Shown here: positions 635 to 54,210 of the stretch, in pieces
Layout: every line of letters begins with the position of its first letter
Position numbering within the stretch: the stretch's first letter is position 1
From: Mytilus trossulus
Taxonomy: Eukaryota
NCBI RefSeq assembly: GCF_036588685.1
Contig: NC_086377.1
Coordinates: 15,128,001-15,192,000, forward strand
Direction: 5' to 3'
DNA length: 64,000 nucleotides
Program-made: the position numbers and the translations under genes
The notes under the pieces: generated by a model
Seen by the model: the letters and a program-made list of their open reading frames with translations, nothing else
Database searches by the model: none
Told to the model about the DNA's origin: nothing

Positions 635-2232
635 ATGAAAATGTTGCAAACAGTAGTTATCGGATTATGTGTTATTGTTGGAGTTTTAACCAAGGTTATA
701 CCCATCACAAATATTTGTGAGAGTCAGGATGGTGTACTTAGGTGTTCGTACAGTGGTGAGGGGCAGTACATCTCCCTGCAAGATCTAAACAACATTCGAG
801 AGATTCGGTTTGAAAGATTTTTCCAACCATCAACACTTTTCATTGAGAATGCCAAACAATTACGTCAAATTATCATACAATCAGGATCTACGCAGTGTGA
901 GGATATTTCTTGCGACAACCCAAAAGTATTGATATCAATAGCAGGCATCCCTTGTCAAGTAAGTTGTAGACTGGATTTTATTTGAGTGTATTTTTTTGTA
1001 ATCAATTTATGTTTTGAAACGCTCCCCTTTAATTTCCATGATAACCAATTGATCAACTAATCACCAAAGAATAAAAACCAAGAACTGCAAAGGGCCATCT
1101 CAAAGGTGATAATGAAACAAGTTATCATCAACATTACAACCAACACAGCATTAAGTTAATATACTTCATTTTTTTTATAGATATTTAATAAAAGTATTTC
1201 AAATGTGAAATTAAACTACAACTATAATTTACATTGTATCAGAATTTACAAGAAAAGTTTTTTAGTTTTTTTATTCCTTCTTTTTCAGTCATCCAAATTC
1301 ACAACCTCCAGCATCACTTATACAACATCAGAACCTGCTTCCTCCCATCAGGTATGAGTATATCCTACAAATAAAATAATTTCTTTTATAGATAATGATA
1401 TCTTTTAGTATGTACATATGTAAATAAGATATAAAATAATTTCTTTTATAGATAATGATATCTTTTAGTATGTACATGTAAATAAGATAATAAAACAAAA
1501 AATATATTATTGAAACAAAATGGTATAATGATTTTTTTAAATTACAGACAGAAAGACCAATTACTTCCACTACCAGCACACCACCATCAACTTTGTCTTT
1601 ACAAAGTGTTCTCTTGGTTGTTTTTGGTGAGTTTTAATAGAACATAACTATTTTTAATATGTTTAATACATGTATGAAATGAAATTTAAAACAACTAAAT
1701 AGGATTAAACTTTTGGTAAACAATTTAACCACCAACCCTATAATTTTAGTAGACAATTGTATATCTTAGTGGTTGATTATATAAATAAGCAATCAAAGAG
1801 AGAGAAGAGAGAGTTGTATTTTAATGAATTGATAGAATGAATGGAAGTCAACACCATGTTCAACAATACATTTGTACTATATATATAGCTACAACCAATT
1901 TGGGTAGACAACTGGTAAACCTTACCACTTTCAGCTAAAGGTTGTTTTTTTTGTGTGTATGTTGAAATAAAATATGAAAATTTTATAGTAAAAATTTAAA
2001 AGAAAAGATAGATTTTAAAATTGTCTTTTTTTTTTGCATTGCAGCTTCCCTAGCTATATTCGTTGGAATCCTTTTCACCATACACTTTGTAAGGAAATAT
2101 TTACAAAAAAAATCAACTAGACCACATTCTACACTAGACCAAGTTGTAATATCAAACTTTATTAATTCATCAAATTCCAGTATAGAACTTTTTAATTTAG
2201 AAAAGATAGACAGTATAAAAAAAAACGAATAA
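635..2232 (+). CDS. Spliced type-I membrane glycoprotein, apparently intact, ~217 aa; exons 635-958, 1289-1351, 1548-1626, 2045-2232; alternative last exon 2246-2474
   Basis: Signal peptide and Cys ectodomain (CSYSGEGQY...GIPCQ|gtaagt). S/T-rich exons, GT-AG boundaries with matching phases (0,0,1). TM SVLLVVFASLAIFVGILFTIHFV followed by RKYLQKK. Confidence 0.75.
1365..1490. repeat. 60-bp tandem duplication in intron
   Basis: ataaaataatttcttttatagataatgatatcttttagtatgtacat repeated at 60-nt spacing. Confidence 0.8.
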
Positions 2233-2528
2233 CTTTATTTTGCAGAAATTATTCTCTGTGCTCTATATGCATTCAGACCACAACTTGCTAATAATATACA
2301 AAGATTTTACGAACTTCTATTCCCAAATCGACCACTCCGACATCAACCCATCAACATTAACCAACAACCCATCAACATTAACCAAAGACCAAGAAGAAGA
2401 AGACAACATCAACCAAGAGTTCGAAATCTACCACTTAAAGCTAGAAACCAGCCAGACCGCCTTATGTACTATTAAAATGATTATTTCAAATTCACTATAC
2501 CTTAATTATGTTCTGACCACCTCCCTCC

Positions 2529-2793
2529 TCAATCTTCTATTTCATCATCACTGATTTCATAAAACCCCCCATCATCATCATCATCTTCTTCTTCTTCCTC
2601 TATCATTCCCATCATTACAAGTAAAACTAAGTCCAACTCCTCATCATCTAAGTGATAGATTTGGTAAATCATATCCTGATTTTCATCCACATCCTCATCC
2701 ACATCCTCGTCATCAGACAAATATATTTCATTTAACATATCCTGATATTCAGGATCTAGAATCAAATATTCATCAATTTCATAATTTTCCATC
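2529..2793 (-). CDS. Small highly acidic protein (~87 aa from MENYEIDEY); paralogue of 37568-37783
   Basis: D/E-rich ORF. The motifs DP-x-Y-x-x-MLNE-x-Y-x-SDD and GFY-x-x-S are shared with the 37.6-kb copy. Confidence 0.6.
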
Positions 2794-3586
2794 TTTACTC
2801 TATTATGTTTTATCATAAAATGATAATTTTTGCTATATGATATTTTAAACTCATAAAAATATTTTATCATTTATTACTTAGAAGAGACACATGAGACAGG
2901 CAACTTTATTAGTGTCATTTTTATTATCCTTTTGAAACTTCTTGAATTTTATATAACACATGTTAAAGGGTAACTCCACAAGATCCAGAAGTTGATTTGT
3001 CACATCTATTACATATTTAATTATCTCTTCAAGTAAATACTGTCTACCTTGATAATGTCATATACAAACACAGATAATTTAAAGTGTGACATGGTATGAT
3101 AATATAATAATTATCTTGTTAAAGAAGCCTATTGATTGTTTACTGTACAGTTAAAAACTTATCTATTTATTGAACTTACTCAGGTAATTATCGGCAATGG
3201 ACATTTGAGCGCATTGACAGGACATTTGAGCGAAAAAAAAGGACGTTTGAGCGCCAAAGTATAGGACATTTGAGCGCCTAAATTTTAGGACATTTGAGCG
3301 AAAATAAGAATAAGCGTAGGACATTTGAGCGAAAACAAGTCTTGGATAGAGAATTGTCTTATTGGCAATCATACCACATTTTCTTACGAATATAGTTCAT
3401 TAAATGAGGAGTTTACCAACAAAAAGATTAAAACATATTTTAATTGTAAAAAACAAAGCACTAAAAACAAAGCACAGTCATAAAACAGGAGTTTACCAAC
3501 AAAAAGATTAAAACATCTTTTAATTGTAAACAAAGCACTAAAAACAAAGCACTGTCATAAAACATAAAACTCGGCAACGGCATTAT

Positions 3587-4146
3587 TTACAAGTCTGTTC
3601 GGGCTTGGAACTTATATCCCAGGCTTCTGACATAAAAATCCCTCGTAATTTCCTGCTGGCAGTATTTCGAATGCAAATCCCGGAGATTCTGTTCCTTCTC
3701 CTTTTCTGTTCGGCTCTGCGGTGCATCAATGTTCAAAATCCGAATTTTTATGTTAGTCACAGATTGCAATTTGATAATAGTGTCAAGGAAAGTATAAATT
3801 GATGGATGACTGTGATAGAACTGCTCGTTATAATGGGCATGAAATGATTCGGGCCCATTGTTAGTACGTTTTAACGAGGATGGAACTTCGGCCCAGAGAT
3901 GAGGGGGAAATAACGATTCATCTGTTATATAAGTATCAGTCAGGTAATCTGCAAATTCTATACAAGGCTTGTCGTTAGGTACAACGGCCATAAAATCTTC
4001 TACGAAACAGTCGGCTACTTCGTCTGGAGCTAAAAAGGCTATCCCAAAAATCCCTTTAAGCCATTTACTAATGTCTGAATCAAGCTCTTTGTATTGTTGA
4101 CTAAGTCCAACTTTCTGGATTTTTCGCCACCAGGCTTGGCCTAAGT
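3587..4146 (-). pseudogene. MULE transposase C-terminal part
   Basis: LGQAWWRKIQ..., PPHLW, RTNNGPESFH, HPSIYTFL motifs typical of MULE DDE transposases; truncated at about 4146. Confidence 0.85.
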
Positions 4147-4235
4147 AGTAGTAGATGTAGTATGAATCCTAAAAAGACAACTCCTCATCCAAGACACAAT
4201 ATAATTAAAACAAGCAATTATATATTGTATATATA

Positions 4236-4342
4236 CACTGTAAAAATTGTGTTTAGGGCCTAAACACTTTTCTATACACATTTCATGTTAGATCTAAACA
4301 TGTTTAGGAAATGTTTAGGCTCTAAGCACAATTTTTACAGTG
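4236..4342. mobile_element. 107-bp hairpin MITE nested in the MULE
   Basis: TIRs cactgtaaaaattgtg / cacaatttttacagtg flanked by TA. Confidence 0.7.
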
Positions 4343-4610
4343 TATTGTATGAATATTGTAAAGTGCCTAGAAAATCAACCTAACAATGTTATATAGGTTA
4401 CAGTACGACCTTCAACATGGAGCCTTGATACCTAACCCTATATGTGGTAGCTTATATTCAAATGTGTTAAAAAATTAATCTAAAGGAGGTATAAGATAGA
4501 CATATAATGATATAGATATAAATCAAAATTAAAAGAAGTTATGGAAGTTGAAGCGTAACAGACGAACAAGTAGTTTACATTAACATTAAATTTGTAAAAA
4601 AAGGTACTTA

Positions 4611-4725
4611 CTGTACATCTCCAGGATATTTCTTCTCCTTTTAGTGTTTTGTCCACTCTATATCGGAAACTGTCACAAACAAGGCTTCTTTTTCCCTTAT
4701 TAGTCTCGGTCAAAATAATATCCAT
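4611..4725 (-). pseudogene. FLYWCH zinc-finger first exon of the MULE transposase
   Basis: MDIILTETNKGKRSLVCDSFRYRVDKTLKGEEISWRCT followed by a gtaagt donor. Confidence 0.7.
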
Positions 4726-7779: not shown

Positions 7780-8207
7780 TATGAAGATTAGTTAGTTTCT
7801 ACATGTTCTCCGTACAGCTTTGCATATAATAAAATGCCACATATCTCTCTTAAAACACCCCCTGAAATCTCTTAAAACGAATACATCTAAATGTTGTAAG
7901 TATGATAAAATCTCCTGTTCACGTAAATACCCACAATATATAATATCCATGAAACATATAAAGAATTTATGTTGTCAAAATCGATGTTACGCTGATCAAT
8001 CAACTCTTCTCCAACATAAAAAATATCTAAATCGTAGAAGTTAGAACTTTTTATAAATTGTTCATAGCAAAAATCTACAAATTGTTTTAAAATTAAAGTT
8101 GGGAATGTTACTAAGAAGTCTCTAATGACTTCTGGGGATTGACATGTTCTACTTATCCGATAAAGTGTTTCCATGGACAATTGAAAAAGGGATTGTTGTG
8201 TTGTCAT
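7780..8207 (-). pseudogene. Orphan ORF, frameshifted near 7940; N-terminus resembles a BC/SOCS box
   Basis: MTTQQSLFQLSMETLYRIS...IRDFLVTFPTLILKQF; reading continues in another frame (YCGYLREQEILSYLQHLDVFVLRDF). Confidence 0.35.
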
Positions 8208-8447
8208 TGCTAAATTATTGATAGTATATAATAAATTTCTCAATAAAGAAAAAAATACAAAAATAGTGAGATCAGATTATTCAAATAAGAATACAAAAAC
8301 AAAAAACATCAACTAAATATTCAAGTTTTGAATATCAATTACAAAATTATATTTGATTAACGACAAAATATTCACATATGGTATTTTTCTCTAAATGTTT
8401 ATATATTTACTTTTTTTTTTTCTTTAAATGTCTATACACATATAATC

Positions 8448-10286
8448 TCATTCGAAATCCGATTCGGAGGAGTCCGTTATTTCGATAACCTTCGGTCTCT
8501 TTGTGGTGAAGGTTTGCTTCTGAAATAAAAAAAAAGAAGAAATATTTTAGAAATTATAAAACTAAGAAGTTATCTCCATACATATGTAGGACTTTTAATT
8601 TATACTTGCTATTCTTACTTTTAAACCAATCAAATGGTAAATAAAAATAAAATCATGTTTGAAATTGGGTTTAAACAAGAGATGAATAGTATATTGTGAA
8701 TCAGTTTACAATCATGGATGATATAGAAAACAATCTAAACGATCTTGAAAGATCAGTGAATAGTAGAACTTTTCTTTTAGTGAAAATTATAGGTATATCT
8801 CTGATCCTATATTCCACTGGAGTTTCTATGGTAGCGGTTATAGAAATGGTTGGTGATCGTTCAAATTCAACATCAATATTTCAACAATTTCAGCTTAAAC
8901 GACCTAAACCGATCTTAGTTCCATGCATAGAAAAGTTAAAGTTTGCGATTGTGGGAGATGTATTTGTAAGAGTGTGTGCAAACATAAATGCGATAGTTGA
9001 CATTAGACAGTACAGAAACCAAACACCAACATCAACGGGGATATTTTTATCTACAACTCAGTATGAACATTTAAAAACAACTATCTTGCAAATAGACGAT
9101 TCTATAAAAAACATTACTAAAACAAAGTGAGAGAAAAAAATATCGAACTTGTGTATGTGTAATATGTAAACGTTTAACTAAAAAAAAACAAAAAAAAACA
9201 AACAAACATTGATAATAAAAAGTTATTCAAAATAGTGTTTCTTACCTCTTCTTCACTTCCTATAGTCTTGTGGCGACTTTCTATCGCTTCACTCAGAACA
9301 GATGGATTGTTCTTAACATTTGTCAGTTTCCGTTTTCGTTTGGTGATCTGAAGAAAATAATAAAAAAAAGTTACAGGAGAAATGTAATTCAAAGTTTTGC
9401 TTACATCAGTTTACAATATAAAACCAATTTTCTATTTAGGAAAAAAAAGTTATTAATTATCAATGAAATTCATATAAATAGATTTGTTATCCTCACCTTG
9501 TTGGTTGATTTCACGGGAGATGTAGCTACTTCCTGCTGTGGTGGTTTTTGTGTGGCGATCTACAATGGAAAAAAATATAACATAAATATCAAACATGACA
9601 TTGGAAACAATTTCAAAATATAGTTGAACAATTTAATGGATATGCATTAACTTTTTTTTGTAAACGTGAAAATTACACACATACACTTACATTTCTTAGT
9701 AAATGAAAATCTCTTTACTTTAAAAACTACATAATTCAAACAAAAAGATAGTATAGCATGTTATGAAAAAACAGAGATGGGTGATGTACAAAATAAAGAT
9801 AGTTAGATAAAAATAAACTTACATCGTAGTCTGCGCTTTTCTCTTCCTTTTTGGGATATAATCTTTTATTCTTAAAAGAAAAAAACATAAAATAAACAAC
9901 TACGCTTAAATCTTTGAATTTTTAAAAATTATTTGAATATTTTCAACAATACATACAACTTTCAAATGAAGACGAGTAAACCTTCTTTCTTGTTTTTATG
10001 AAAATCTCACTAAATGTTTTTATGAAAAGAAAAAGTCACAACTACATTTAGTAATTGAAATAAAAATTTAATCTACCTTATTTTGAATCACTTCCTTCGT
10101 ATCCGCAAAATTTCTTGTAAAGACTTCCATTAACTGCTCCATCTCATCTGCTCCTAATGAAATGGATTTTTGGTTTGGAATGTTCTCCAAGTGAACGTAA
10201 ACATACCCCTTCCACGAATTTATTGTAACTTTTTTGTTCCTACCAAATTTTAGTGTAGCCTTTGACTGGTCTTGGTTAAACTGCAT
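8448..10286 (-). CDS. Intact 5-exon PC4-like protein (164 aa); exons 10286-10077, 9870-9823, 9559-9497, 9347-9246, 8519-8448
   Basis: All four introns are GT-AG and phase 0, giving an open frame to TGA. Exon 1 FGRNKKVTINSWKGYVYVHL...SISLGADEMEQL fits the PC4 fold pattern. KRKRK NLS, acidic tail, upstream TATA at ~10366-10373. Confidence 0.75.
8714..9130 (+). CDS. Membrane-anchored PC4-domain protein nested in intron 4 of the antisense PC4-like gene
   Basis: Hydrophobic segment FLLVKIIGISLILYSTGVSMVAVI, then the PC4 signature VDIRQY...PT..GIFL...QYEHL. Confidence 0.7.
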   Translation: MDDIENNLNDLERSVNSRTFLLVKIIGISLILYSTGVSMVAVIEMVGDRSNSTSIFQQFQLKRPKPILVPCIEKLKFAIVGDVFVRVCANINAIVDIRQYRNQTPTSTGIFLSTTQYEHLKTTILQIDDSIKNITKTK

Positions 10287-10654
10287 GATGATTTGTTTTT
10301 CTTTTACGGTAATGGTTATTGGTAAAAAATCTGGAAGCAAGGTAGAGTTGAAGATATTTCGTTAGTTTATATAGGAAATGAGGTGTTATAATGTTTACTA
10401 GCAATTGGAAGATGGACGCGTATGTTAACACAACACACCAATACAATTGTTTTAAGGTGTGGCCAAGATAAAATTCGACATAAGCCACACCAATTTGATT
10501 TACAATTAACTTGAAATTGGAGATAAGATCATCAATTTATTAATTTATTTTAAAGACAAATTCGTGATAAAAAAAAAGAAGAACAAAAAAAACGATTTCG
10601 TATTATCATACTATAGTGTAATACAAATGTATTGTATTCGAGAAAAATGGAATT

Positions 10655-12546: not shown

Positions 12547-13068
12547 TTAACGCAAATAGTTTCTGACTTGTCTCTGATAGGATTTTTGCAATCTTTCAAA
12601 ATAATCGATATATAAACTAATAAAAGGGGGTAAATCATTATGTGGAATTTCTATTTCTGGATTGTTAAGAAGAGTATATAAACAGGATGACTGTAGAGTT
12701 AAATAAGAAAAGGGGTCATACACGTAGGAAACTGTATAATTAATCGCATCTAAATAATCTATGTCATCATGATTGTTTATCAATTTGTTCCATACTTGAT
12801 GTGGCGAAAGTTTAAATAGATCCATATCTGGTAACTCTGAAGAATTTGTTGATGGTAATGTTGTTTGTCCTGTTGTTGCTCCTGGTCCTGTTCCTGACGT
12901 TGTTGTTGTTGTAACTGATTGTGTGGATGTTGAGACACTCGACGCAGCAGTAGCGATATCTGTTGTGGCAGTTGCGGTTGTAGTTAAACTTGGATATAAC
13001 GCAGCAAAATGTTGTGGCGTCTGTAACCGGGAATTTCCTGCAACAGATATCAGTGTTATAGAAAGCGT
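12547..13068 (-). pseudogene. C-terminal half of the same orphan protein (T-rich linker plus helical domain)
   Basis: Open frame to a natural stop; the 5' side is cut at the junction with polB (13068/13069). Confidence 0.65.
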
Positions 13069-16000
13069 TTTTCTGGTGGTTTGGTAAATGTTAAAAATGA
13101 GGATCACAAATGTTTCTTGTGGAGCATATTAGCAGGTCTACATCCAGCTCAACGAAACCCTAATCAAGTTTTACATTATAGAAAATATGAACACTCTATG
13201 GATTTAACCGGAATCGACTTCCCCGTTTCATTGTCTAAAGTTGAAAAATTTGAAAAACAAAATGACTTATCCATCAACGTGTTCGGGTGTGAAGATGGGG
13301 TTGTATTTCCACTATACCTTTCAAAAATGGACAATGGATATAAAGAAATTATTTTATTGTACTTATCAAAGGAAAATAATTCTCATTATTGTTGGATCAA
13401 GAATTTCAGTCGTTTCCTTGGACACACACGAAAGCATCACGGTCAACTTCACTATTGCCATCGATGTTTGCATGGGTTTATTAGAAAAGATTTGCTAGAT
13501 AAACACCGACCATACTGTGACAAATTCGATTTTCAAAAAATTGAATTACCAGAAGAAGGGAAAAATATTCTTGAGTTCAAGGATTTCCATAAAAGTATGC
13601 ATGTTGGATTCACGATTTATGCTGATTTTGAGGCACTGACTCGGAAAATGGATTCATGTTTACCAGATCCGAATATATCATCTACAACACATTGCACGAA
13701 ATTTGAAGCTTGCGGTTATGCTTATCAAGTCGTATGTACCAACAGTAACTACACCAAACCCCCAGTTGTTTACAGAGGTAAAAATGCTGTCGAACGTTTT
13801 TTTGGAGACATGTTTAAAGAAGAAGAGTACGTTAATGGTATTTATGGTGACATTGAACCTTTGATCATGACCGATGAAACAGAAAAAAAAATCAAAAGTG
13901 CAACTCATTGTAATATTTGCAGCGGCAAGTTTTCTGATGGTCTCATCAAAGTCAGGGATCATTCTCACATTGGTGTGACTGGGGATCGATATTCTGATAA
14001 CTATAGTAATTACAGATCAGCAACTTGTCAGGCCTGTAATCTGAATTTGCAAAATCCATCATTCATCCCCATATTTTTTCACAACTTTCGCGGATTTGAT
14101 TCCCATTTACTGATAGAAGCTGCCGGAAAATACAAGGACAAGAAGATCGTGTGTATTCCAAATAATATGGAAAAGTATATTTCCTTCTCTGTTGGAAATT
14201 TAAGGTTCTTGGATTCGTACCAGTTCATGTCGGAAAGTCGGAGAGGCTGGTAAAAAATTTAGCTGTAGACGGTCTGACTCATTTTCACCACTTTAGAAAA
14301 GCTTTTCAATCCGATGAAATAGCCAAATTGCTACTACGTAAAAATGTCTATTGTTATGACTATGTAGATAGCCATGATAAATTCGAGGAGACTATGTTAC
14401 CCCCTAAAACAGCTTTCTACAACACCATAAAAAGAGAGCATTTTTCTAATGATGACTATGATCACGCACAACGTGTCTGGGCTGCTATGGACATGAAAAC
14501 ACTTGGTGATTATCACGACCTTTATATATTAACTGACGTTTTATTGCTGGCAGATGTGTTTGAAAGATTCAGGACAATGACAATAGAATACTATGGACTT
14601 AATGCCTGTTATTTTTACACAGCCCCTGTACTTGCTTGGCAAGCTGCCTTAAAAATGAGTGGTGTCAGTTTAGAATTGTTAACATCTCCAGACATGTATA
14701 ACTTTTATGAACTCGGTTGTCGAGGTGGATTAAGTATGATTAGTCAAAAGTATGCTAGGGCTAACAATAAATATGTTAAAGGTTATGACTCTACTAAACC
14801 TAGCTCATATCTGATGTATTACGATGCCAATAATTTATATGGTTGGGCTATGTCACAACCTCTCCCAACTGGAATGATGCGATGGTTAGATGCGGGTGAA
14901 ATACAAGAATTCAACTTGTTAAAAAAAACAATTGATGGTCCAAAGGGCTACATGCTTGAAGTCGACCTGGAATACCCAAATGAAGTACATGAAAATCACA
15001 ATTCCTACCCCTTAGCCCCCTCACACAAGCACGTGGTGGACGAAGAGCTTTCACCATACAGTAAATCGTTGAATGAAGATTTATATGGTGAACACCGGAA
15101 AAGACCTAAAACGATCAAACTGATACCAACGTTGGAAAACAAATGTAACTACATTACCCACTACAGAAATCTACAGTTATATATCAAATTAGGAATGAAA
15201 ATCAAGAAGATCCATAGGATCATAGAATTTGATCAATCTCCCTGGCTAGCTAAATACATATCCTTTAATACGAAGAAACGTCAAAAATCGAAAAATTGCT
15301 TCGAAATTATTATTTTTAAATTAATGTGTAATTCCGTCTTCGGAAAAAACATGGAAAACCTAAGAAACAGAGTTGATATCAAACTCGTCAATAGCGAGCG
15401 TAGTTTAAGAAAATATACTAGCAAGCCGTCGTTTGAGCGGTTTCAAATCTTCAATGAAGATTTGGTTGGAATTCAAAACAAGAAGACGAATTTATTACTC
15501 AATAAACCCGTCTACGTGGGAGCGAGCATATTGGAACTTTCTAAAATCGTTATGTATGATTTTCACTACAACGTAATGAAGTCAAGATATGGGAAAAATA
15601 TCAACCTTCTCTTCTCCGATACAGATTCTCTGATGTATGAAATTTCCACTGAAGATATTTATCAGGATATGATGACGTTTAAAGATTATTTTGATACTTC
15701 GGCATATGATGTAGAGAACAAACTCCATTCAACAGTTAATAAAAAAGTTGTTGGGAAAATGAAAGATGAATTATCTGGTAAGTGTTTTATTCAAATAGGC
15801 ATACCCGCATATTTAATTTCAAACAATAAATATAAAAGTCAAGTGAAAGTAAATTATCTGTACTTGTTCATACTTTAATTGTTTTCATACTTTAAATGTC
15901 AAATATGTTGGGTTTTTTTTTTTTTTACATTATAATTACTATTTGATTTTATCCTTTTCAAGAGTCCCTATTACGGAATTTGTAGGGTTGCGTCCAAAGA

Positions 16001-16314
16001 TGTATTCCATAATCTACGATGTTGATGGAACACAGAATGAAAAACGAACAGCTAAGGGAATAGCCAAGTGTGCCGTAGACCAACAAATTAGACATGAACA
16101 TTATAAACAGTGTTTGTTTCAAAACAGAATGACTTTAAATGATATGAACTTGATTCGTAGTGATAATCACATTCTATATGTGAATCACATTAGAAAAACT
16201 GGACTGTGTAACTCTGATGATAAGCGGTTTTGGAAAAATTCCATACACAGTTATGCGTTTGGACATTATACAATTCCAATTGTAAATAAAAGTTGTAATG
16301 TATATTGTAAATGA
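13069..16314 (+). pseudogene. polB: Polinton/adintovirus-type protein-primed family B DNA polymerase (endonuclease-VII/HNH-containing lineage), 5'-truncated, 1 frameshift, 1 intron
   Basis: vOTU-like KCFLWS...SHYCWI; ExoI YADFE; Endo-VII CNIC...RDHSH...CQACN; ExoII HNFRGFD; ExoIII YILTDV; Pol A DANNLY, B KLMCNSVFGK, C DTDS; then LRPKMYS and KGI. Frameshift at ~14239, intron 15778-15961. Confidence 0.93.
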
Positions 16315-16430: not shown

Positions 16431-17017
16431 TCACTGTAGTTGGCTTAAATACTCCATTGGGTTATAATTCTCCTCTCCCGGGATTTTAGGTTTTTTGTTT
16501 ATCATATCACCTTCTTTACTGTCCATGGATCTCTTATTAGAATGGTTAAGCACTCTTAAATGTTGCGCTGTGTAGGGTGGTGGTGGAGGCGTGGCTTGAG
16601 ATGTCAACGGAAGCAACCCTTTTGCAGTTTGTGGTGAATGGTGTTGTGGAGGATGCTGCATAGGTTGTTCTTTTTCCTTAAAAGAAATGAAATTAAATTA
16701 GTCACTTTTGAAAAAGTTGATATGTTTAGATTGTATTTTTATTGGAGTTCGACTGAATTAAAGATGGATAAAAATGAAAAACTTACCTCTAATTCATTAA
16801 ACAGTTGCTCCAACGCTTCTTTCATGTTAACTAGTTCACAGAATTCATCATAACCAAGAGAGCATCTTCCCGGGTTTCTAGGATTGTTGTTGTATAAGTT
16901 TATATAAAAATAGTCATTCACTTTTGTTAATACTATAGCCATATTCCTCCCGAAATTGGTACGCATCTCCAAATTTCCCTTTATACTATTTTTCTTTGCA
17001 AAAGCGTAACTTTCCAT
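16431..17017 (-). CDS. Intact 2-exon divergent PC4-like protein (158 aa); exons 17017-16787, 16676-16431
   Basis: Phase-0 GT-AG intron. FGRN...YFYINLY...CSLGYDEF aligns with the 10286 gene. Pro-rich tail with PPPPY and KKPK; TATA at ~17084-17092. Confidence 0.7.
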
Positions 17018-18282
17018 TATGTTTATTCTAAAATTAGCAGTATATGAAGAATAAAAATATGTAGTTTTGAGTTAGGTGTTGGGTTTATATATAGTATTAC
17101 AAAAAATATTTGGGAGGGTGGGGTGGGTATTTAAGCTACGTCCCTCTTCATTTGCCCAATTGAATTGATGAATGCATATTTGAATACATGTAGATCTATT
17201 CCTATGGGAGTACAGTTCTCTTCAGGGTTTTCTGACTCGATGTTCTCACGGTCTAGAAAATGGTGATACATTTAATGTCAGAATTAATTTTTAATACTCT
17301 AGCTTATTAACTAATTAAAACAAAATGGAAGATCTGAACATGGGAAAAGGATAACCCTAGAAAGGCTTTTCTAATTTATTATAAATCATCATCATGTACG
17401 GAATAATTTACAGTTTAAAGTTAACCATCATATGATTTATCAAAACAGGCGCTTAACTGTTTGAGTTTCTTTGGTGGGTCAGGTAATTATATATATATGC
17501 ATATCTAACTTGAAATTATGTGGTATGGATATTTTATTAAAATATACTGACGGATTTTGTAATGTATTTTATGGTAAAAATTTCCATTCTTAATTTTGAA
17601 CTCGGACTTCTCTTGAACTGTATTTTAATTGTATGCATTTTGCACCCGTCCTAAGTCGGGAACCTCTAGCCTTTTTTTTTTTTTTGTCTTGTATGTAGGG
17701 TTGATGTCTCTTTGACACATTCCCCGTTTCCATTCTTTATTCTATTAATCCCTCATTTACTGGATAACACAATGTCAATTTGCGCAGAAATAGAAAATCA
17801 TACTCAAAACATATGAAAAGATTAAAAATTATCAAAATCGCACTATGTTGATATAAACGAACAGAAAAACCACGTGGGATAACAGAACATTTAACAAAAA
17901 CTACCTTAGCCATTGAAAGTCATTTATTGTTTTATAAATTTCATCATAGGATATAGTCATATATCACGAGTTGTCTCTCTCTAAACACAAACGATTGACT
18001 AACACAACAAATAACATAGTGTGACAAACAAACTCATTCCATATAATGAACAGATAAAAAAAACCTGTCATTTTATGCAACAACCAAACTCTTTTGTGTT
18101 CAACGAAATATAGAGGGGTGGGGGGCTAAATAATCCTGTTCATTGAGTTGTGGCTAATCTTACATGGTAGACAACTCTATAGTTAAAATACCATTCGGAA
18201 CCTAGATTTTAATAGATTCATCAAAGCCCCTAGAGAGGTCAAGATTTCCCGCGGATTTTAACCATATGACAATGTCTGAAAA

Positions 18283-21094
18283 AATGGCTGTCTCATATTT
18301 TCTGTGCTTATTAATAATATATTTCCAAAGTGCTTGTGCAGTTCGATACGATATAACGGAAGTATGTGAAAAGGAATTTGACTTAAACTTTAAGTTCATA
18401 GGGTATGTATGTTCTTTCCGAGGAGAGGGGACATACATTTTCAAGGATCGGGGGCACTCCGAGTCTGGTGACGCAACCATAAGCTTTGCTATGATCAATA
18501 TACAAACTTTTGTTTTAATTCAAACACCAATCAGAAAACTGGAAATTCGACGAGGGGTTATGGAACTGTGTTCAAACATTTTACTACCAACAGAGGAATT
18601 CTTATAACTGTTAACGGACAGGAATGTGTAAGTGTGTCTCCTCACATAAACAAATTGTGCGTACACCCGAAAGACAGCGTGTTCCCTCCAAAAAAGAATG
18701 TTCAAATAATTTCTTTTCTTTTTCTATATTTATGAACGGGTATTTGTTAGCTAAGGGATGTTTTAAAGCTTTACTATCAATGCATGTCCCAAGTCAAGAG
18801 TCTCTAATTTTAGTGAACTGATCGTTGGTTTTCTGTCATTTGAATTTTAACTGGTCTTTTGGAGTCGTAAAGCTTTTATACTTTGCAGTGTGAGTCAAAT
18901 TATTATGCTCTGTGTTGAAGTCCCATACTGTGACCTATAACTGTATAATTGCTTACATCAACAACATTATGTCTGGAGAGTTGTTTCATTAGCAATCATA
19001 CCATACCATAGTTTTCTGTTCAATCTGAACTTGTTTGTGTTGTTTTCTGTTCACACTGAAAAAACATTTACTGACTACATTGCATCACATTGATTTCAAT
19101 TAAAAAACAAGAAAATATTTACTCTTTAATCTACATTTTTCTCTCAAAATGATACATCAATTGGTATTATATATGTATTTAATAGTTTTCTTAAATTTTG
19201 AATGTTTATAATTGGCACTATTTTTCCATTGTCCTTCCTAGAGCTCGAACAGTCAAATGGTTTCCATATCTGAAAAAAAGTTATAGAAATTAATTACTGA
19301 ATAAAAAATCTTCACAAATAAATTTTAATACCAAAAACAATTTGTATAAGAAAGAAAAATTTATGTATTTGTAGAATTTAATAGAGGATAATCCTCAATC
19401 TTTAGCCTGTTGCACAAATTGTCTTAAATGTGTAGGTGTGTATTATCTCTAGTGCATGCCTTAGTATTTTTTTTTTAATATATTTTATACATCTTCATCA
19501 GTTCAAATATTTAACTAGAAAACATTTTATTTATCCTAACAGGCAACTGATCATGATGTATCCTCCATAACATCTACGGCAGACAAATTAACCATGATTC
19601 AAACTGCCACTCAAACCATGGAAACCATGACAGAAACAATGACCTTTACAGTAAGTACAATTTAAATCTTAGAACTATATTGTGTGTATAGACACACACA
19701 CACAAAGGAATGTTAATATTCACAATCATGGATATATAGTTACCAGTAATAAGATACATGTAGCAACCCTCAAATAAACTGAAAGTGTGATAGAAATGTT
19801 GTTTAAAATTCAGCTTTTATATGCTGATCATTTTACGAAGCAAATAATTTTTTCTTCAACAAAACAGTGTAAATACTTTTTTCTTACAGGTATTGGAAGC
19901 GCAGGTGTCTTCTTCAAAGGCAGCAGACAAGACTGCTACGTATACTTATGTAAGTAATTAAGCAAATATGCGTACCTTAAATACCTTCTTCTGTTTGCTC
20001 ATTTACATCTGTTACATCGGTTACTTGATCTACATGTACTTCTGTTACTAGCTCTGAATATGACGGTGGTGGATTCAATATAGGAGAATTTGATCGTGAT
20101 GAGGTACTTTGACTATCCAGAATATCTTCCTCATCAAAATGAATCTGTGGTAGCTGAATTGTTCTGTTCACCTTCTCCCTACAATTATAAAATAATTACA
20201 ATTCCATTATTTCTTTTTTTAAATTGTAAAATTCTTTACAATGCATTTCTGTTTCCATTTTCAGACTGATAATCAATCCTTAGGCTTGGATGATGAAAGA
20301 TTGGCATGGTTGTATTCAACTGTAAGCTTGATTATTGGTAAATATTTTTAAAATTACATAGTGTGATCATAGAAATGTGTGAAAATGCCACGCAAACATT
20401 TATTTGGTATACCTGTTTGTTTTTAAAAAACACTAGATGCACACCATATCCTGATATTAAAATACAAGTATTACATACATAAATGATCATATTAAATGAT
20501 AGCAATCCACCTTTTAAGGTTTCTAACAAACTTCATGATTAACAGGAAATAACTAATTTTCCCCCTTGTTTTTTTCAGTCATTGCTATCGCCCTGATTGT
20601 CTGCTGTTACAGATGCTTTAAAGCCAGAGCCCGCAATTCATCAAAGAAAACTAACCTGTTCGAACTTTCATCTGACATACATTTTGAAGTACCTGAAGCC
20701 ATTCAGATAGATTAATTTTTAGAAATAAATTTTTTGAATATGCATTCTAACATTTTCTAAGTCATGTGGAAGTCATTATTCTGAATTTCAAATATATTGA
20801 TTCTTTCAGTATATGATTTTGCTGACTCTGCTTATATTACATCAACTGTTTCCAGAAAATGAATTTGTCATTCAATAAAACCAACTTGTAAGGCATATAC
20901 CAGCTATAGCTCGTGGCATTAACGGGAACAGACAAAATAATCAACCAGAACCTCAGCACAATAACCAAGACGGACAAAATAATCAACAAAATGTTATTCA
21001 AAATGTTAATAAAAATGTTAATCACCCTATCCCACCTCAGAGGTTAAGAAGATCTGATCGTATAAAACGACCAGTGCAAAGGTTGTCTTTGTAG
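18283..21094 (+). pseudogene. Spliced type-I membrane glycoprotein, paralogue of the 635 gene; exons 18283-18627, 19543-19650, 19890-19949, 20265-20321, 20810-21094 (alternative last exon 20579-20715)
   Basis: Signal peptide, CSFRGEGTY, NGQEC|gtaagt; T-rich exons; TM LAWLYST|YMILLTLLIL. Frameshift at ~18597 and a premature stop at 20876. Confidence 0.65.
19977..20530 (-). pseudogene. Antisense TM exon (20412-20530) and PPxY-containing tail exon (19977-20178) interleaved in introns of the 18283 gene
   Basis: GLLSFNMIIYVCNTCILISGYGVHLVFFK with a gtatac donor; ttgtag acceptor then ...NPPPSYSEL; phases differ by one base across a homopolymer. Confidence 0.45.
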
Positions 21095-21125: not shown

Positions 21126-21470
21126 TTACCTTTCTTGTATGGTGAGTATTACCATCTCCAATATCTTCCTGCCTACGCCATCCTTTTTCTCCCTCATTGC
21201 TTGGATTAATTCAAATAACCACACTAAAATATCACTTCTAGTATAATACAGAAACATTAACCCCTGTTTCGGAGTTGAATGCACCAATGTATGATATAAT
21301 GAAGCCAGGTCTATATCATAATCTTCCAATCTATCTAAGCAAGATAACATGGTTAAAACTTCAGTTTTACTCGTGTCGTCTAAACTGCATATTATACACG
21401 GTTGGTGGCAGACCACCATGTCTAAAATTTCTTCTTTATGATATTTTAACCTGAACACTATAGATTCCAT
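21126..21470 (-). CDS. Orphan 114-aa protein, single exon
   Basis: Clean ORF with aaaATG context and upstream TATA (~21521-21531); H-x-x-C-x-x-C motif; no recognisable family. Confidence 0.5.
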   Translation of the reverse strand: MESIVFRLKYHKEEILDMVVCHQPCIICSLDDTSKTEVLTMLSCLDRLEDYDIDLASLYHTLVHSTPKQGLMFLYYTRSDILVWLFELIQAMREKKDGVGRKILEMVILTIQER

Positions 21471-22727
21471 TTTCTTAATTTAAAAATGTTTGCAAGTATG
21501 AAATAAGCATGGTTTTCTCAATATATATATAGTCTTTGGAGATAATTGCTAGTGAAGAAGTGTAACCAAATTAAATACCAAAATTCCCCCCCCCCCCTTT
21601 TCCCCCCATTGTCCCATTTTAAATTATATGGGTAGTGCAACGTTTAAGTCCTTTATTTCAAAAATTATATGAACAGTGCAACTATTAGTATATGGTTTAA
21701 ATCTGCTTCGTGAAAAGGTTACCAAATAATAACATAACATTAAGAAACAGGTCAATTTCGGCAGTTCATTATAAGTTCAGTTTTGTATGAGTTTGTGAAA
21801 TATTTTAGAATACATATTCAAAGAAAGAAATCATTGTAGTTTATATTTACAATATTGTTCCACAAGCATCCTTTTTTATTCATTATATATCTGGCATCCC
21901 ACATTATTAATATTTCCACTTGTTTAGTGATTTTTTTTAAATGTTTACTATAGATTTACATTCTCAATGCAGATAAGTTTTTATTTCACATGTTTTATGT
22001 ACAGTTGTTTTAACTGTATATACCTCATTTGCCTAACCATACTTAAACCAGTGATTATTAATTTTCAATTTTTTTTTATCTTTTATCAATATGGAGATAA
22101 TTTAATGGCAGCTTTATGCTTGAACTATGGTTGATAAACCATCCTCTATGAATGTTATATTAGTAATGGTGCTTATGGAAATTTTTTAGTTGTTGAGTAT
22201 ATAATTAACCCTTACAATGTAAATATTTTGATATTGTTATTGATGTTTTTATCAACAGTATTATTTGTGATTGCATCATGGCCAAGTATTAAATTTTGAA
22301 TGATAAACATATATCCCCCTTTGCTAAATAAAGTAAGAATTTTCTTGCAAAGAACTGAAAAAAAAATATATATATTTAAATGTCTAGAATGTGTCATCAT
22401 TTACAACACATGTGTTCAAATCTGTCTTGAGCAGTAATATGAAATCATGTTTTTATTTTGTAGGTTTTTACCATTAACAACACTTTAATCCAAATTTGTC
22501 ACTGTTTAGTAATCACTGATTCTTATTTCAAATGAATCCTTCATATATTGAATTGAACTGAAATTTTTGTAATATGTTACAAAGTGCAAATTAAAAACAT
22601 TTATTTCCACCAAACATCTACTTCAATTTTATTTACATTATTCATTGTTTTCATATCTGTAACTTGACTATTTGCTGTTGATGTTATTATAATTGCTTTT
22701 ATTTGTGTTACATCAATCAATTGAATA

Positions 22728-35339: not shown

Positions 35340-35766
35340 ACGTTCGTGGTACAAGTTAAACCATGTGACTGTTTGCCTTTATTGCTTTGTGAACATAAGT
35401 TAAGATTATATTATAAATGCACATCTTCACCGAGCTCTGTATGTTTGAACTGGTCGTAACAAAAAATCAAAAGTGCGTTCTGTTCGTAATTTGACCTGTA
35501 CGATATCATTTGACATGGACAGGAAATGTCATGTTTTTTTCCATTTACAATTTTAATGCGTTTGATGAGTTTGTCCACAATCAGGAGTCCATCTTTGTCC
35601 ATCCCGGCAAACACTCAAATTTGGACATCTGTTGAGAGGACATATGTCCCCTTCTTGAGGAGACCACACAGATCATTTTTGTTGGAAATTTTATCTCTAT
35701 CTCTGTCATGTAACATACGCTTATAAACAATGTGCAGCAAACGAGTATTATGAAACAAGTCGCCAT
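35340..35766 (-). pseudogene. Degraded secreted/membrane protein exon, possible distant member of the glycoprotein family
   Basis: Signal peptide MATCFIILVCCTLFISVC, then (frameshifted) DLCGLLKKGTYVL...IKRIKIVNG...C; contains stops and frameshifts. Confidence 0.4.
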
Positions 35767-36540: not shown

Positions 36541-36824
36541 TCTGTCTAACGTTAAACGAAGGGCGAAAATTGTTGTAACAATCCTAATTTTACACTACTA
36601 AACTTTAAATGTCTATACATAATCCATTCGAAATCAGATTCTGAGTTCCATTGAAGATTAAATAGATATATTTTTTTTTACTTTTTCATATTTTTTTTAA
36701 TGAAACTTGAATGGGACTTCTACGATAATGTTTAATAGGGAATAGCCTTTGCATATTAAAAGAATATACACTTCATGTTGCTTTAATGTGATAAACCATG
36801 TACTGCACTGAGCCGAACTTTTTC

Positions 36825-37050
36825 AGGAACAGTCGTTGTCCAAATTTCCCCCAGAAACTGTTGAGACACAGTTTGGCAAGACTACGTAAACCTGGATTTA
36901 CCTTGATGCTGTCGTAATCTAAGTTTTTGCCTTCATTTTCTGTATACAATCGAATGTATTCTCGTTTTTCTTCCTCCGTCCGACAGTGTTTGGGGAAACC
37001 ACTGGCTTCCTGTTTTATTTTAAGAAACAGCTGGACGTAGTCATTCATAT
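36825..37050 (-). pseudogene. polB: Internal fragment of second-lineage pPolB (motif B region)
   Basis: FLKIKQEASGFP...I..NPGLRSLAKLCLNSFWGKFGQR, the hallmark Polinton pPolB motif B. Confidence 0.9.
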
Positions 37051-37540
37051 ATCCGTTGACATCAACAGGACTTGGCGGCGGTTGTCTGAAACCATTCAGG
37101 CTAGGGTGTATACAAGATGCTGATTGTTTATAAGCAACTGCTTGAGGCTGAAGAAGTGCTGGTGGAAAAGCGTAGGCAAATGCACTTGAAGGCTGATAAG
37201 TTGTCGCCTTACTGGATGCTTCCTGCTGCTGAATCCTATGTGAAGACTCCTAATTAAAAAAACACATATAAAAGCGAAAGGTTCTGTACAGATTAAAAAG
37301 GGTCGTAAAATTTCAATTGAACGGAGAAAAGTTTAGAAGTTAAACAAATCAATAACTTACCTCGCATGGGCTGCTTTTTCTGCCGGGAAGACACTGCTCA
37401 GGGAATCAAGATCTCTTCGGATTGATAAAATGAAATCTAGTTCACCAAGTCCTAGACATATCCCATTAAAACGGGCCTTCCCGAACTTATTATCGTATAG
37501 ATCTAAATAGTAAAACTGTTCATGTTTCCTATAAACTAAG
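37051..37540 (-). pseudogene. 5'-truncated 2-exon PC4-like gene (exons ~37540-37361, 37250-37051) fused to the pPolB fragment
   Basis: LVYRKHEQFYYLDLYDNKFGKARFNGICLGLGELDFIL aligns with the 17017 gene; gtaag donor, tag acceptor, Q/P-rich exon 2. Confidence 0.6.
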
Positions 37541-37567
37541 GATTTATTAGTTCACTATACCTTATAA

Positions 37568-43390: not shown

Positions 43391-43532
43391 CTCATTTTTT
43401 TTCTGTTGAGAGATGGGTCTTTACTCCTAATGCCTGTATCTTTTTCTTTTCCTTTGTAGACCTCAATCCATCATTCCAGGCTTCTTCCAAGATAGCTAAG
43501 GTTGCATCAGAGATTATTTCTCTACTTCTCTT
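43391..43532 (-). pseudogene. Exon encoding helices 1-2 of a divergent (HDX-like) homeodomain
   Basis: cag acceptor, KRSREIISDATLAILEEAWNDGLRSTKEKKKIQALGVKTHLSTEK, gtaaag donor. Confidence 0.45.
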
Positions 43533-43569
43533 CTGGCATAATAAAAAAATAAATTCAAAGTATAAATGA

Positions 43570-43760
43570 ATTCTAGAGCTGTCTAAAATTGTAATGAACG
43601 AATTCCATTACAAAGTGGTGTTACCAAGGTACAAGGAAAACTTGAACTTAATGTTTACTGATACTGACAGCTTAGTGTATGAAATTTTCACTGAACATTT
43701 CTATGATGACATGGGAGAATTTCAACAATATTTTGACACCTCATATTACGAAGAAAGTTC
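43570..43760 (+). pseudogene. polB: Short pPolB fragment (motif C), same lineage as but distinct from 13069-16314
   Basis: ILELSKIVMNEFHY...LMFTDTDSLVYEIFTE.FYDDM...YFDTS aligns with 15528-15700. Confidence 0.88.
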
Positions 43761-44003
43761 ATGGCCAATCAGTGTATGATTCTGTTCTTAATTCTCATTA
43801 TATTAGACAGGGGTGTGGCAATTGAGCTATAATTTTTTTAGTTGACAATGATTGGCATGTAGGAATGCAGCTTTTACTTGGCAAGTGATGAAATTCACAA
43901 GTAATCAGACAATGATTAATGTGGACCCTGCTATAATTATTTGTCTAAACTTGAGAAGGAAAAAGTCAAGACTCTTACTAGATGTAAATTAAAAATAACA
44001 TAC

Positions 44004-47778: not shown

Positions 47779-47889
47779 TGAGAGAATGGAATACTATAGA
47801 GACATTATGAGACACCCTTTTGAAGCCAATGATGAGTTGATTAAGATTTCATTAAAATTTTCTGTATAGTTAAAGAGATGATAGAGCTT

Positions 47890-48053: not shown

Positions 48054-48069
48054 GGTCATATTGATTCCA

Positions 48070-48476: not shown

Positions 48477-48504
48477 TCCATTCGTTTGATGTGTTTGAAC
48501 CCTC

Positions 48505-51810: not shown

Positions 51811-52465
51811 GAGTTGGTAATCGAAAATCTGATTGGAAAGCGGTAAAAAGCGAAATCTGATACGTTTGACAATCAGTTCGAATTGTGCGCATTTTTGTTG
51901 CGCAGTTTCGTACAATACATTTTTAAAACTATTCCTATGTGTTTAAAACTTTCGAAACTTTTGTGAGTTATAAAAACAAATAAATAGTTTTTGCATTACA
52001 AATAATCATATTATTACTTCTTTTTTATTACTTCTTTTAAGGAAAAGAAACTTGGATACTAAAAAAATCGAAAATAATAACAAAAATATATATTGTCTCT
52101 CATAATTTTTACGGAAAGATCCTGTAATTATTATAATCACGACTTGAAACAATAAGAAATGAACGCACTTATCGTTATATCAAATGTGTTGATCGGAAAT
52201 AATCAAAATTCGAGGAAAATATAATAATATTTCGGATTTAAATAAATCTTTTTTATTCCTCTAATTCGCTTGCAGGTGGTGTGTACCTGTGGTCTGCAGC
52301 TATTAATTGTTGATAACCTATTCTTAAGTTTGAATTGAAATGAAACAGACCGTCGTAAATAGTGGTAATTTCATTATTGATTACTTTATAATAATTTCTT
52401 TTTTTGTTATAATCAGAGTCGGTAATATCATTCGCCTCGATAGAGAGCGAAGTTAATTTCCATCT

Positions 52466-52640
52466 GCTTACCCTTCCGGAGCACCTGAGATCACCCCATG
52501 TTTTTGGTGGGGTTCGTGTTGTTCATTCTTTAGTTTTCTATGTTGTGTCATGTGTACTATTGTTTTTCTGTTTGTCTTTTTCATTTTTAGCCATGGCAAT
52601 GTCAGTTTGTTTTAGATTTATGGGTTTGACTGTCCCTTTG
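52466..52640 (+). repeat. Fragment of an abundant interspersed repeat
   Basis: cttacccttccggagcacctgag...ggggttcgtgttg...tttagttttctatgttgtg recalled as a common mussel repeat; single copy in the window. Confidence 0.45.
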
Positions 52641-53528
52641 GTATCTTTCGTCCCTCTTCCTTCCACATGCTAGTTAAAACAAATCGTCTTATCGTCGATA
52701 GCCACATGTTGTTTACGTATTTCAAATTGTACAGCCTGATTTCTTAAAACACAAAAAAGTGCATTTGCTTCATTGCCTACTTCATTCACGAGTTTGTGTA
52801 TTGCTCTTTTTTTTTTTCTTAAAAAAAACCCGATTATTTTAAAGTTTCTAAAATTAAATAAGATGAAAGAGGTTCCAACTTTCCGTTAATCTAGTAAAAA
52901 CTTTTCTTATAACATTTTCACTTTGTCTAGATCGCATGTCAAATTCGTTTGCAATATTAAGCACATCCATGATACAAAGATAAATGCATAAAACTATTGC
53001 AACACAGACCCTTGTTGTATCGTGAAAGTGTCTTTATAGAATGTTTAAATTACTCAGATGAACGAATGAAAATCACCTTTTCAAGGTGACGGATTTCTGT
53101 CATTAAAAATCCTATGATAAAAGAAACTCTTCTTTAGGAATATGTTTATTTAAAACCCCTATCGTCCTGAACATATATGTAATATTTACCGCTGGATTTT
53201 TATTATTAAACAACCCTAAACCTCCTGTGTATATATAGTAAAACAAAAGAATGAAATGTTTAATAGAATATCAAGAGTTATGCCGCTTTAAGCAGAAGTT
53301 ATTCGTGTACTTCACGTCAAATGTTTGCTGCTTGTCGGAAAAACTCGATAATGCACAATCAAACAAAACACACTAAAAAAATAAAGTTTTTATACTGGTG
53401 TCAAAAAGAAAAATCACCGATGCTTAAAACCAATAAATATGATATTAATATACAAAAATAAATGTTAATAAAAAAGTAAACAACATTCCAGTTACGCAAT
53501 TTTTGTTGACTTATGCCGGGAAAACAAA

Positions 53529-54210
53529 ATGGAATTATACAAGGTGCTCTGTTTGTCTCTCATGTTAAATACATCTGTTGCATATTTCTTGCTAAACCAT
53601 AACACTTATGAAGGTGTTGAAAACCCCTCAACATTCGAAATTGTGCAAATAAATTGCCAGTACAGAGGTCCGGGGATATATGTATTCCATGGATTAAAAA
53701 CTATCGAGAAAGTGACGATGAAAAGACTAATGGAGGAGGCTCATGTGAGAATTGAAGAGGGGAGCTCACTGGAGCAATTTATGATATTGACGGGGCCTAT
53801 GAGTTATTGTTATTTGGTGAACGCACCGTCTAGTGTACTAGTTATGATACAGCAGACACCTTGTGTAGGTATCATTTACATAAATCAGTTGTTTTGGTTT
53901 AACTTTCAAACAAAACTGGGTGCTACACTTGGAACTCAAAATTAAGTAAGAATATTTTGATTTTCCTAAATTGAGAGCATATGCTATGGAGGTAATGCTT
54001 ACAAAACTAACAACAACTATATCTAAATTTTGGTTTCCAAGACATGATTATGTGAAAATGTATTATTCAAGATTTGTATGGGTAAAATTATATATACCAT
54101 TATAGTTTAAAAATATTTTATACAGGGTGATCAGACCACAATTACAAATAGTGGTGCAGAAAAGACAACAATCTTTTCTACAAGAAACGGTGTTACTGCA
54201 GTGAACACAG
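53529..54210 (+). pseudogene. Third member of the glycoprotein family; exon 1 53529-53864 intact, T-rich exon 2 from 54126 degraded
   Basis: Signal peptide, CQYRGPGIY, IQQTPC|gtaggt (same intron position and phase as the paralogues), tacag|GDQTTITNSGAEKTT. Confidence 0.65.

Follow-up and report, generated by a model that had tools for sequence, protein, structure and literature searches.

The window analysed here, a stretch of 64,000 nucleotides from the mussel Mytilus trossulus (NCBI RefSeq assembly GCF_036588685.1, contig NC_086377.1, positions 15,128,001 to 15,192,000 of the forward strand), contains three genes, beginning at 635, 18266 and 53529, which belong to one family of predicted type-I membrane proteins. 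These spliced genes are very probably accessory genes of Mavericks (Polintons), and the copies in the window are relics in decayed, nested elements, gene 1 (635) being still spliced and gene 2 (18266) and a fourth candidate at 35766 being broken.

Gene family in the window

An initial annotation, made from the letters alone, had proposed that the three genes share a motif, CSYSGEGQY at 743, CSFRGEGTY at 18410 and CQYRGPGIY at 53655, and this holds: three occurrences stand against a mean of 0.05 and a maximum of 1 in 100 Markov simulations of the window. All three motif exons encode a hydrophobic N-terminus and a domain of about 90 amino acids, with a phase-0 GT donor (958, 18627 and 53864) at, or one codon past, the last Cys, also as proposed. 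Genes 635 and 18266 then run through Ser/Thr-rich exons and a transmembrane segment (TM) split by a phase-1 intron into a tail, in agreement with that account; for gene 3 (53529), a search for a TM exon found none. The predicted plan of signal peptide, single ectodomain and TM is drawn from hydropathy, both in genes 1 and 2 and in a gene of a young Maverick described below. The label “glycoprotein” would rest on the Ser/Thr-rich stalks, since no N-sequon is found in the mature domains of the window genes.

Pairwise identity among the three domains is 19–26%, and one profile recovers all three genes at independent E-values (iE) of 5e-34 to 2e-20 (a partly circular measure), which bears out a single homologous family with shared exon structure at low identity. 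This low identity, and the weak links that single-protein searches make between subfamilies, would also be in keeping with signal-peptide exons that are unrelated, lie in repeat debris and are alike by chance. That reading is refuted in practice by the motif count and the profile scores, by the 80 library proteins that the profile finds, by the young-element gene, which lay outside the seed alignment and was nevertheless found by the search with gene 1 at E 3e-5 with the same exon phases, and by purifying selection.

Gene 635 is spliced. It is identical to the Mytilus trossulus RefSeq models LOC134718566 isoforms X1 and X2, the joint 958>1289 occurs in contigs of two of four runs (X1 and X4, from two studies), and the joint into 1548 in one of the four (run X1), where loose contig ends at 1626 and 2245 are compatible with a joint 1626>2246. 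Gene 2 had been modelled from 18283; its exon 1 does carry the motif, but the first ATG is at 18266 and a late frame change breaks the exon, with a stop at 18605–18607 and the final residues of the domain in another frame. The sequence at 35766 on the minus strand, which had been put forward as a possible member, matches the family poorly alone (iE 0.46; hhalign probability 17%). Its DNA is 85–95% identical to a copy at 37.99 Mb on contig C5, and the frame of that copy matches the family profile (E 0.0044; hhalign 73%, E 3e-5), so that 35766 is likely a diverged, broken member, joined to the family only via this DNA-level relative.

Family members beyond the window

A profile of the three window domains, of the kind that the initial annotation had suggested, was searched against 1.84 billion proteins at E<=0.001 and yielded 80 relatives with a median identity of 27% (5th–95th percentile 19–40%). 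Conserved columns comprise four Cys, one Tyr, three Gly and an F-D-R-L block; each Cys is present in 66–75 of the 80 relatives, and there is no Trp among the columns conserved in at least half. A Val directly follows the last Cys in 45 of the 66 relatives that have it, as expected for models that read through into a GT donor. The motif itself does not define the family: 49 of the 80 relatives carry it, and a member without it aligns to the family at an hhalign probability of 94.5%.

Thirty clusters were looked up, and the 11 with a named organism belong to Mytilus (10) or Tegillarca granosa (1). The named M. coruscus copies are 92–94% identical to copies in the present genome, and exon 1 of the young gene is 100% identical in an M. 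galloprovincialis record. As to context outside this genome, fused gene models join the domain to a polymerase-like piece (P0065) or to PC4-like pieces (P0003 and P0074), as judged by eye. Scans of viral contigs with P0089 and gene 1, and of metagenome contigs with P0089, found no outside loci.

Consistent with the view that no annotated host family matches, Pfam has no family for the domain (30 window frames, 64 family members and 12 full proteins), PHROGs gave no match, and the best row of a PDB profile search reached E 0.9. A MAM-domain identity, suggested by a cut-off UniRef label of cluster P0108, was rejected, as neither P0108 nor P0109 has a MAM match at E<=1. The exon at 37249, fused to the family domain in P0062, was likewise set aside as more likely part of the adjacent PC4-like gene. 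Literature searches brought up no description of the family, and there is no account of it in the available parts of three further reports (10.1101/2024.03.25.586562; PMC10294476; 10.1101/2025.02.07.637071), supplements lying outside this coverage; an annotated example from a mollusc may be contained in the genome maps of PMC8502044 and 10.1101/2024.03.25.586562. We regard it as a real and apparently undescribed accessory family of bivalve Mavericks with a putative function.

Carriage by Mavericks

A search of the M. trossulus genome with gene 1 gave 15 matches. Nine of these, on five contigs, represent a single distant member whose copies are nearly identical and which lies about 640 bp inside the left end of a young Maverick. 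This element is 16.9–19.3 kb long and has 10 placements, nine of them two-ended; a 6-bp target duplication flanks eight of these nine, and family exon 1 is kept in nine of the ten placements. Its terminal inverted repeats (TIRs), of about 150 bp, start with AG(T) and gave 19 exact end matches (control, 0). It encodes an integrase with a chromodomain (rve PF00665, E 3e-10, above the cut-off), an adenain-type protease (Peptidase_C5 PF00770, above the cut-off), an A32-like packaging ATPase (Pox_A32, E 1e-4, just under the cut-off) and a double jelly-roll (DJR)-like capsid, which scores 0.98 in the ESM Atlas to clusters with PF21738 on 14–30% of their members and has no PDB sequence match. A long polymerase-like frame, 1278 aa in most copies, matches the polymerase open reading frames (ORFs) of the window at 42–53%. 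The young family gene has the plan of gene 635: a phase-0 exon 1, stalk exons, a phase-1-split TM and two alternative last exons.

Gene 635 itself begins 518 bp inside the terminus of a second, different Maverick family. Homology to a copy at 48.58 Mb on C5 begins at the same base as the TIR of this element, and a copy on C14 (38.81 Mb), in which the far TIR and the genes for capsid, protease and integrase are still present, holds the TIR reversed, beyond the integrase. The window as a whole consists of decayed elements nested in one another, and contains three pieces of polymerase genes as well as three or four PC4-like genes (Table 1). The ORFs at 13027..16311 contain what we take to be family-B polymerase motifs; Pfam made no PolB call for them.

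Table 1. Features of the family genes and their surroundings in the window. Signal peptides, ectodomains and TM segments are predicted; P numbers are library records; pLDDT, AlphaFold2 model confidence.
Feature	Position	Strand	Evidence or remark
Maverick TIR, left end of gene-635 element	117..430 (430 approximate; inner end overlaps common repeat)	+	starts AGTAGT
Gene 1 exon 1: signal peptide, ectodomain, phase-0 donor	635..958	+	joint 958>1289 in contigs of runs X1, X4; model pLDDT 95.7
Gene 1 exon 2: Ser/Thr stalk (57% S/T)	1289..1351	+	joint 958>1289
Gene 1 exon 3: stalk, first half of TM, phase-1 donor	1548..1626	+	joint into 1548 in run X1
Gene 1 last exon A: completes strong TM; short tail, acidic/hydrophobic motif	2045..2232	+	record P0002; joint absent from run contigs
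Gene 1 last exon B: weaker TM end; Q/P- and Arg-rich tail, C-terminal P-D-R-L	2246..2475	+	record P0001; loose ends in run X1
Small ORF homologous to young-Maverick gene	7890..8276	-	40% over 43 aa, E 1e-6
PC4-like Maverick gene	10071..10361	-	Pfam PC4 E 0.001; 40% to young element's gene
Broken pPolB-type polymerase, three frames	13027..16311	+	42–53% to young element's long ORF
PC4-like Maverick gene	16742..17071	-	
Gene 2 exon 1: ATG 18266 or 18284; broken by frame change near 3' end	18266..18627	+	M. coruscus record P0004 92% identical
Gene 2 exon 2: T-rich stalk	19543..19650	+	AG/GT ends; same peptide in P0004
Gene 2 exon 3: stalk	19890..19949	+	from sequence
Gene 2 exon 4: first half of TM, phase-1 donor	20265..20337	+	from sequence
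Gene 2 last exon A: TM end, Cys/basic stop-transfer, acidic tail	20579..20715	+	similar tail in P0084
Gene 2 last exon B remnant: C-terminal end LRRSDRIKRPVQRLSL, in-frame stop	20800..21094 (start approximate)	+	
Small ORF common to other family loci	21129..21479	-	
Likely diverged, broken member: signal peptide, stop, frame change	35540..35766	-	
PC4-like exon, P/Q exon and pPolB fragment adjoining 35766 gene	36776..37551	-	Pfam DNA_pol_B_2 E 1.2e-4
Gene 3 exon 1: signal peptide, ectodomain, phase-0 donor	53529..53864	+	model pLDDT 96.3; 89% copy at C5:12.095 Mb
Gene 3 exon 2: T-rich stalk running to stop	54126..54380	+	

Co-location with Maverick-type genes within about 10 kb was found at 9 of 16 older loci, own-locus queries left out, and, with the same queries, at 4 of 5 further loci, i.e., 13/21, versus 0/20 controls, or 2/20 if integrase-only matches are counted (Fisher 1.6e-5 and 9e-4, respectively). 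A sixth further locus, 14 kb from one already counted, was left out, and a first test with fewer queries had given 4/15 versus 2/20. Together with the carriage by the young Maverick, this upholds the virus-like origin and the co-location with pPolB-type elements that had been suggested from the window. Family members occur in at least two Maverick families and stand beside Maverick genes in most subfamilies. None of 14 other Maverick loci carries the family (19–29 kb examined per locus); it is therefore an accessory rather than a core gene.

The chromosomal distribution raises a different possibility, namely that this is a host bivalve family of mini-receptors with leucine-rich repeats (LRRs), clustered on C5 and captured several times by Mavericks, or that relics are kept by the host as an antiviral decoy repertoire. 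Of the 27 older placements, 24 are on C5, which makes up 6.8% of the assembly, and they spread over ~10–86 Mb; for the ATPase the figure is 16 of 119 rows. The 8 of 21 loci without nearby Maverick genes, the splicing of gene 635 despite its decayed element, and the alignment of the gene-1 model to the N-terminal cap region of extracellular LRR receptors (see below) also speak for a host family, and the intron-bearing cargo of nematode Mavericks has been read as host-derived in the available text of its report (10.1101/2022.07.12.499685). On the other hand, the C5 tally is biased because the queries came from C5, so that the enrichment may partly be query bias. Several C5 copies are broken or truncated, the members are spread over at least two Maverick families, no Pfam family matches, and every organism-named cluster is Mytilus or Tegillarca. 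We consider a host family, or a repertoire kept by the host, rather unlikely.

At one C5 locus (~30.63 Mb; L035:8348-9998), a member that is strongly diverged and lacks the G-x-G motif is repeated in tandem beside integrase remnants.

Selection

The initial annotation had called the family rapidly diversifying and hypervariable, a description that the substitution rates do not support. Sixteen pairs were compared at the pairwise level. The ratio of nonsynonymous to synonymous rates (dN/dS) is 0.16–0.65 in the 11 measurable pairs, all below 1 and 7 significantly so; three other pairs have no synonymous change (1–4 nonsynonymous, not significant) and two are saturated. Young copies differ by 0–1 base in exon 1, and the M. 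coruscus copies remain as similar as stated above. The family is deeply diverged between element lineages and constrained within them by purifying selection.

Two alternative last exons

The genes offer a choice of two last exons, a feature absent from the initial annotation. Last exon A encodes a strong predicted TM (hydropathy 2.8–2.9) with a short acidic/hydrophobic tail, and last exon B a weaker one (1.7–2.3) with a Q/P-rich tail, an Arg cluster and a P-x-R-L end. Both isoform types are present as RefSeq-type records for gene 635 and for the young gene, the expression of the latter being known from such isoform records only. Tail B, with its end R-R-S-x-R...P-x-R-L, was located by a sequence pattern downstream of 7 of 22 family loci and on 0 of the 22 opposite and 0 of 160 control strands; an earlier, looser pattern gave 5 of 24 family versus 3 of 160 control strands. 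Tail B also ends the Tegillarca record P0079. In its letters it presumably resembles the chromatin-binding motif of foamy virus Gag, and we likewise take it to be akin to Arg-anchor motifs that bind chromatin.

Predicted fold of the ectodomain

The domains of gene 3 and gene 1 were modelled with AlphaFold2 at pLDDT values of 96.3 and 95.7 and a predicted template modelling score (pTM) of 0.86. Both models show short strands in the same order and one short helix, i.e., the same kind of beta-solenoid, so that the different folds which would have spoken against a single family did not appear; the two models are not independent because their alignments overlap. The best rows of a structural aligner have Z 4.9 (rmsd, root-mean-square deviation, 3.8, 90 aligned) and Z 5.9 (LRIM1, rmsd 3.1, 81 aligned). 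Top rows are mostly LRR or beta-helix proteins, no Ig-type match being prominent, and the gene-1 model often aligns to the N-terminal cap region of extracellular LRR receptors. Residues 4–88 of this model match extracellular Cys-capped LRR proteins (LRIM1, 3o53; TrkC, 4pbw; TLR3, 2a0z) and the C-terminal beta-helix of CAP (1k8f) at Z 4.9–5.9 and rmsd 3.0–3.5. In contrast to LRR proteins, the mussel domain has two to three rungs, 5–19% identity and no LRR Pfam match (0 of 64 members at E<=0.1), and the scores are in the range of a common arrangement. We therefore regard the ectodomain, with good confidence in the fold class, as a predicted parallel beta-solenoid of two to three rungs, cysteine-capped, with two likely disulfides and without a close solved relative; it may be called weakly LRR-like, a resemblance at the level of structural scores. 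An ESM Atlas match to clusters of RNA-dependent RNA polymerases (0.92, 157 shared features) was rejected as weak, with low recognition.

Comparison with known systems

The closest parallels come from nematode Mavericks, which carry intron-bearing cargo genes, wasp and krma, and a fusogen, MFUS-1, according to the available part of their description (10.1101/2022.07.12.499685). As in the mussel, that part describes a spliced gene in a variable region beside the left TIR, patchy carriage and near-identical copies between species, and MFUS-1 also has a signal peptide and one TM. The nematode cargo differs in being a protease or a kinase, and MFUS-1 in being an 866-aa gB-like fusogen; the mussel protein is of about 220 aa, with a predicted 90-aa solenoid head, a stalk and two alternative tails.

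The initial annotation had likened the family to the RL11 proteins of cytomegalovirus (CMV) and the adenovirus E3 CR1 proteins. As far as the consulted portion of PMC11416908 goes, these form multigene families near a genome end, with a signal peptide, one small ectodomain, an O-glycosylated stalk, a TM that some members lose, and low identity, so that the likeness in topology and in the terminal, dispensable position stands. It does not extend to the domain: RL11/CR1 is IgV-like, rich in N-glycans, with one conserved Trp and two Cys (PMC11416908), whereas in the mussel domain four Cys but no Trp are conserved, the window copies are free of N-sequons and the predicted fold is a parallel beta-solenoid. 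The resemblance would thus be an analogy in the way the proteins may work.

Adintoviruses carry accessory proteins such as PLA2X, GasderminX, Cupiennin and Oncoid (PMC8502044). These too are cargo of animal Polintons, some membrane-active and some with a basic pX-like C-terminus, but none is described in the parts consulted as a spliced type-I membrane protein, and the main text does not contain “splice”, “glycoprotein” or “Mytilus” (PMC8502044). In the chromatin-binding sequence of foamy virus Gag, a short C-terminal motif attaches to the acidic patch of H2A/H2B through an Arg anchor, as given in the available section of PMC6042332. In tail B, by contrast, the motif stands at the C-terminus of what is predicted to be a membrane protein, and chromatin binding by it is putative.

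Proposed role and competing explanations

A terminal, spliced, patchily carried and constrained surface protein best fits a host-interaction accessory factor. Patchy carriage in itself fits an accessory gene. The reading that we favour, with a probability of about 0.65, is that these spliced genes at Maverick ends encode a type-I, solenoid-headed protein which serves as a dispensable host-interaction factor. The integrated element would be transcribed by the host and the protein would enter the secretory route, where an O-glycosylated Ser/Thr stalk may lift the head off the membrane. The cysteine-capped head of about 90 residues would likely bind an extracellular host protein. Isoform A, with its strong TM and acidic/hydrophobic tail, might cycle between surface and endosome and thereby sequester or remove the partner, while isoform B, with its weaker TM, might bring an Arg-rich tail that binds nucleic acid or chromatin. 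For such a decoy or modulator, in which the head binds a host protein and tail A traffics it, we would put the chances at somewhat less than even.

Several points weigh against this reading. Around eight of the 21 older loci, a Maverick gene is missing from the nearest 10 kb or so; the co-location loci include several duplicates and are not independent, and a part of the queries was taken from other loci of the family. The polymerase frame of the young element has no polymerase call in Pfam, PHROGs or PDB. The pattern used for tail B was derived post hoc from members of the family, and the runs behind the splice joints of gene 635 are contigs whose RNA origin is only guessed. As to the fold, the alignments overlap, the two models agree in strand order rather than by superposition, and the domains of genes 1 and 3 are the only ones modelled; Foldseek gave no match at E<=0.001 against PDB and BFVD, and a Z below 8 may reflect only a common arrangement. 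Pairwise dN/dS gives no sign of positive selection, which an arms race with the host often leaves. The decoy or modulator role, finally, is putative and drawn from genes, transcript records and models.

The main rival, which we hold to be unlikely, is a virion attachment protein: particles would be wrapped in membrane, the head would bind a receptor of the next cell, and isoform B would grip the DNA core from within by means of its Arg-rich tail. The signal-peptide/TM fusogen of nematode Mavericks, as the accessible text reports it (10.1101/2022.07.12.499685), and the pX-like domain in which adintovirus virion accessory proteins often end (PMC8502044, in part) lend it some weight, as do the retention of tail B as far as Tegillarca and the unchanged young exon 1 in the M. 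galloprovincialis record. However, the family is missing from all 14 other Maverick loci, several of which have full capsid modules, and no ORF of fusogen size is found among the young-element frames of at least 85 aa. Moreover, the head is of small size, and splicing sets the gene apart from the core genes, which have no introns.

A bolder extension of the host-interaction reading, quite unlikely in our estimation, is that mussel Mavericks are active viruses with an E3-like module, in which the swap of last exons makes a surface decoy and a form directed to nucleus or virion, while two dozen relics on a single chromosome, still transcribed, would be kept by the host as an archive of antiviral decoys.

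The question whether animal Mavericks are real viruses has been open for a long time. A constrained family of spliced surface proteins, in a young element common to mussel species, would be of little use to a purely intragenomic transposon, and provides a small, well-modelled protein with which the question can be tested. The domain, by the searches made here, has neither a Pfam family nor a close solved structure. In addition, the “uncharacterized” Mytilus models LOC134718566, LOC134695483 and LOC143078853 are Maverick genes, which may bear on gene presence-absence variation in mussels.

Other elements and reading frames

A second spliced gene for a predicted type-I membrane protein, with a signal peptide and a Cys-rich beta domain, runs from 41076 to ~39100 on the minus strand, with a phase-0 donor near 40821 and a TM exon near 39257. 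It was considered as part of the main family and rejected, as the profiles do not align (hhalign 0.1%). All 15 of its own-genome matches are on C5, and a relative lies inside a two-ended C8 Maverick with a target duplication (L175:4325-4621), one of the 14 other Maverick loci mentioned above.

Outside the terminus at 117, a segment of about 200 bp (window 1–117 with L081:9916-10000) recurs at 11148–11349 with 95–99% identity, and such a recurrence 11 kb inside reflects a nested or tandem rearrangement. Neither the C14 copy nor the one at C5:48.58 Mb has the insertion at 3192–5135, in which frames resembling a transposase can be made out by eye. On the minus strand, the acidic ORFs at 2529–2870 and 37571–37822 are related to each other, with 76% identity in DNA; the former is directly downstream of gene 635. 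An ORF uniting a hydrophobic segment with a PC4-like domain, weakly related to a young-Maverick gene, occurs at 8714–9130 (plus strand) and at L031:6474-7007 (minus strand). At 30029–31533 (plus strand), a zinc-finger ORF and the frames that follow resemble the N-terminal part of another polymerase-type gene, and tyrosine-recombinase-like frames at 43981–45533 (minus strand; Phage_integrase E 0.037) adjoin the third polymerase fragment, at 43525–43752. Elsewhere in the genome, on C11 at ~52.91–52.93 Mb (L167-L169), a Maverick forms a large palindrome with a target duplication present, its capsid and integrase modules being mirrored at 99.9% identity.

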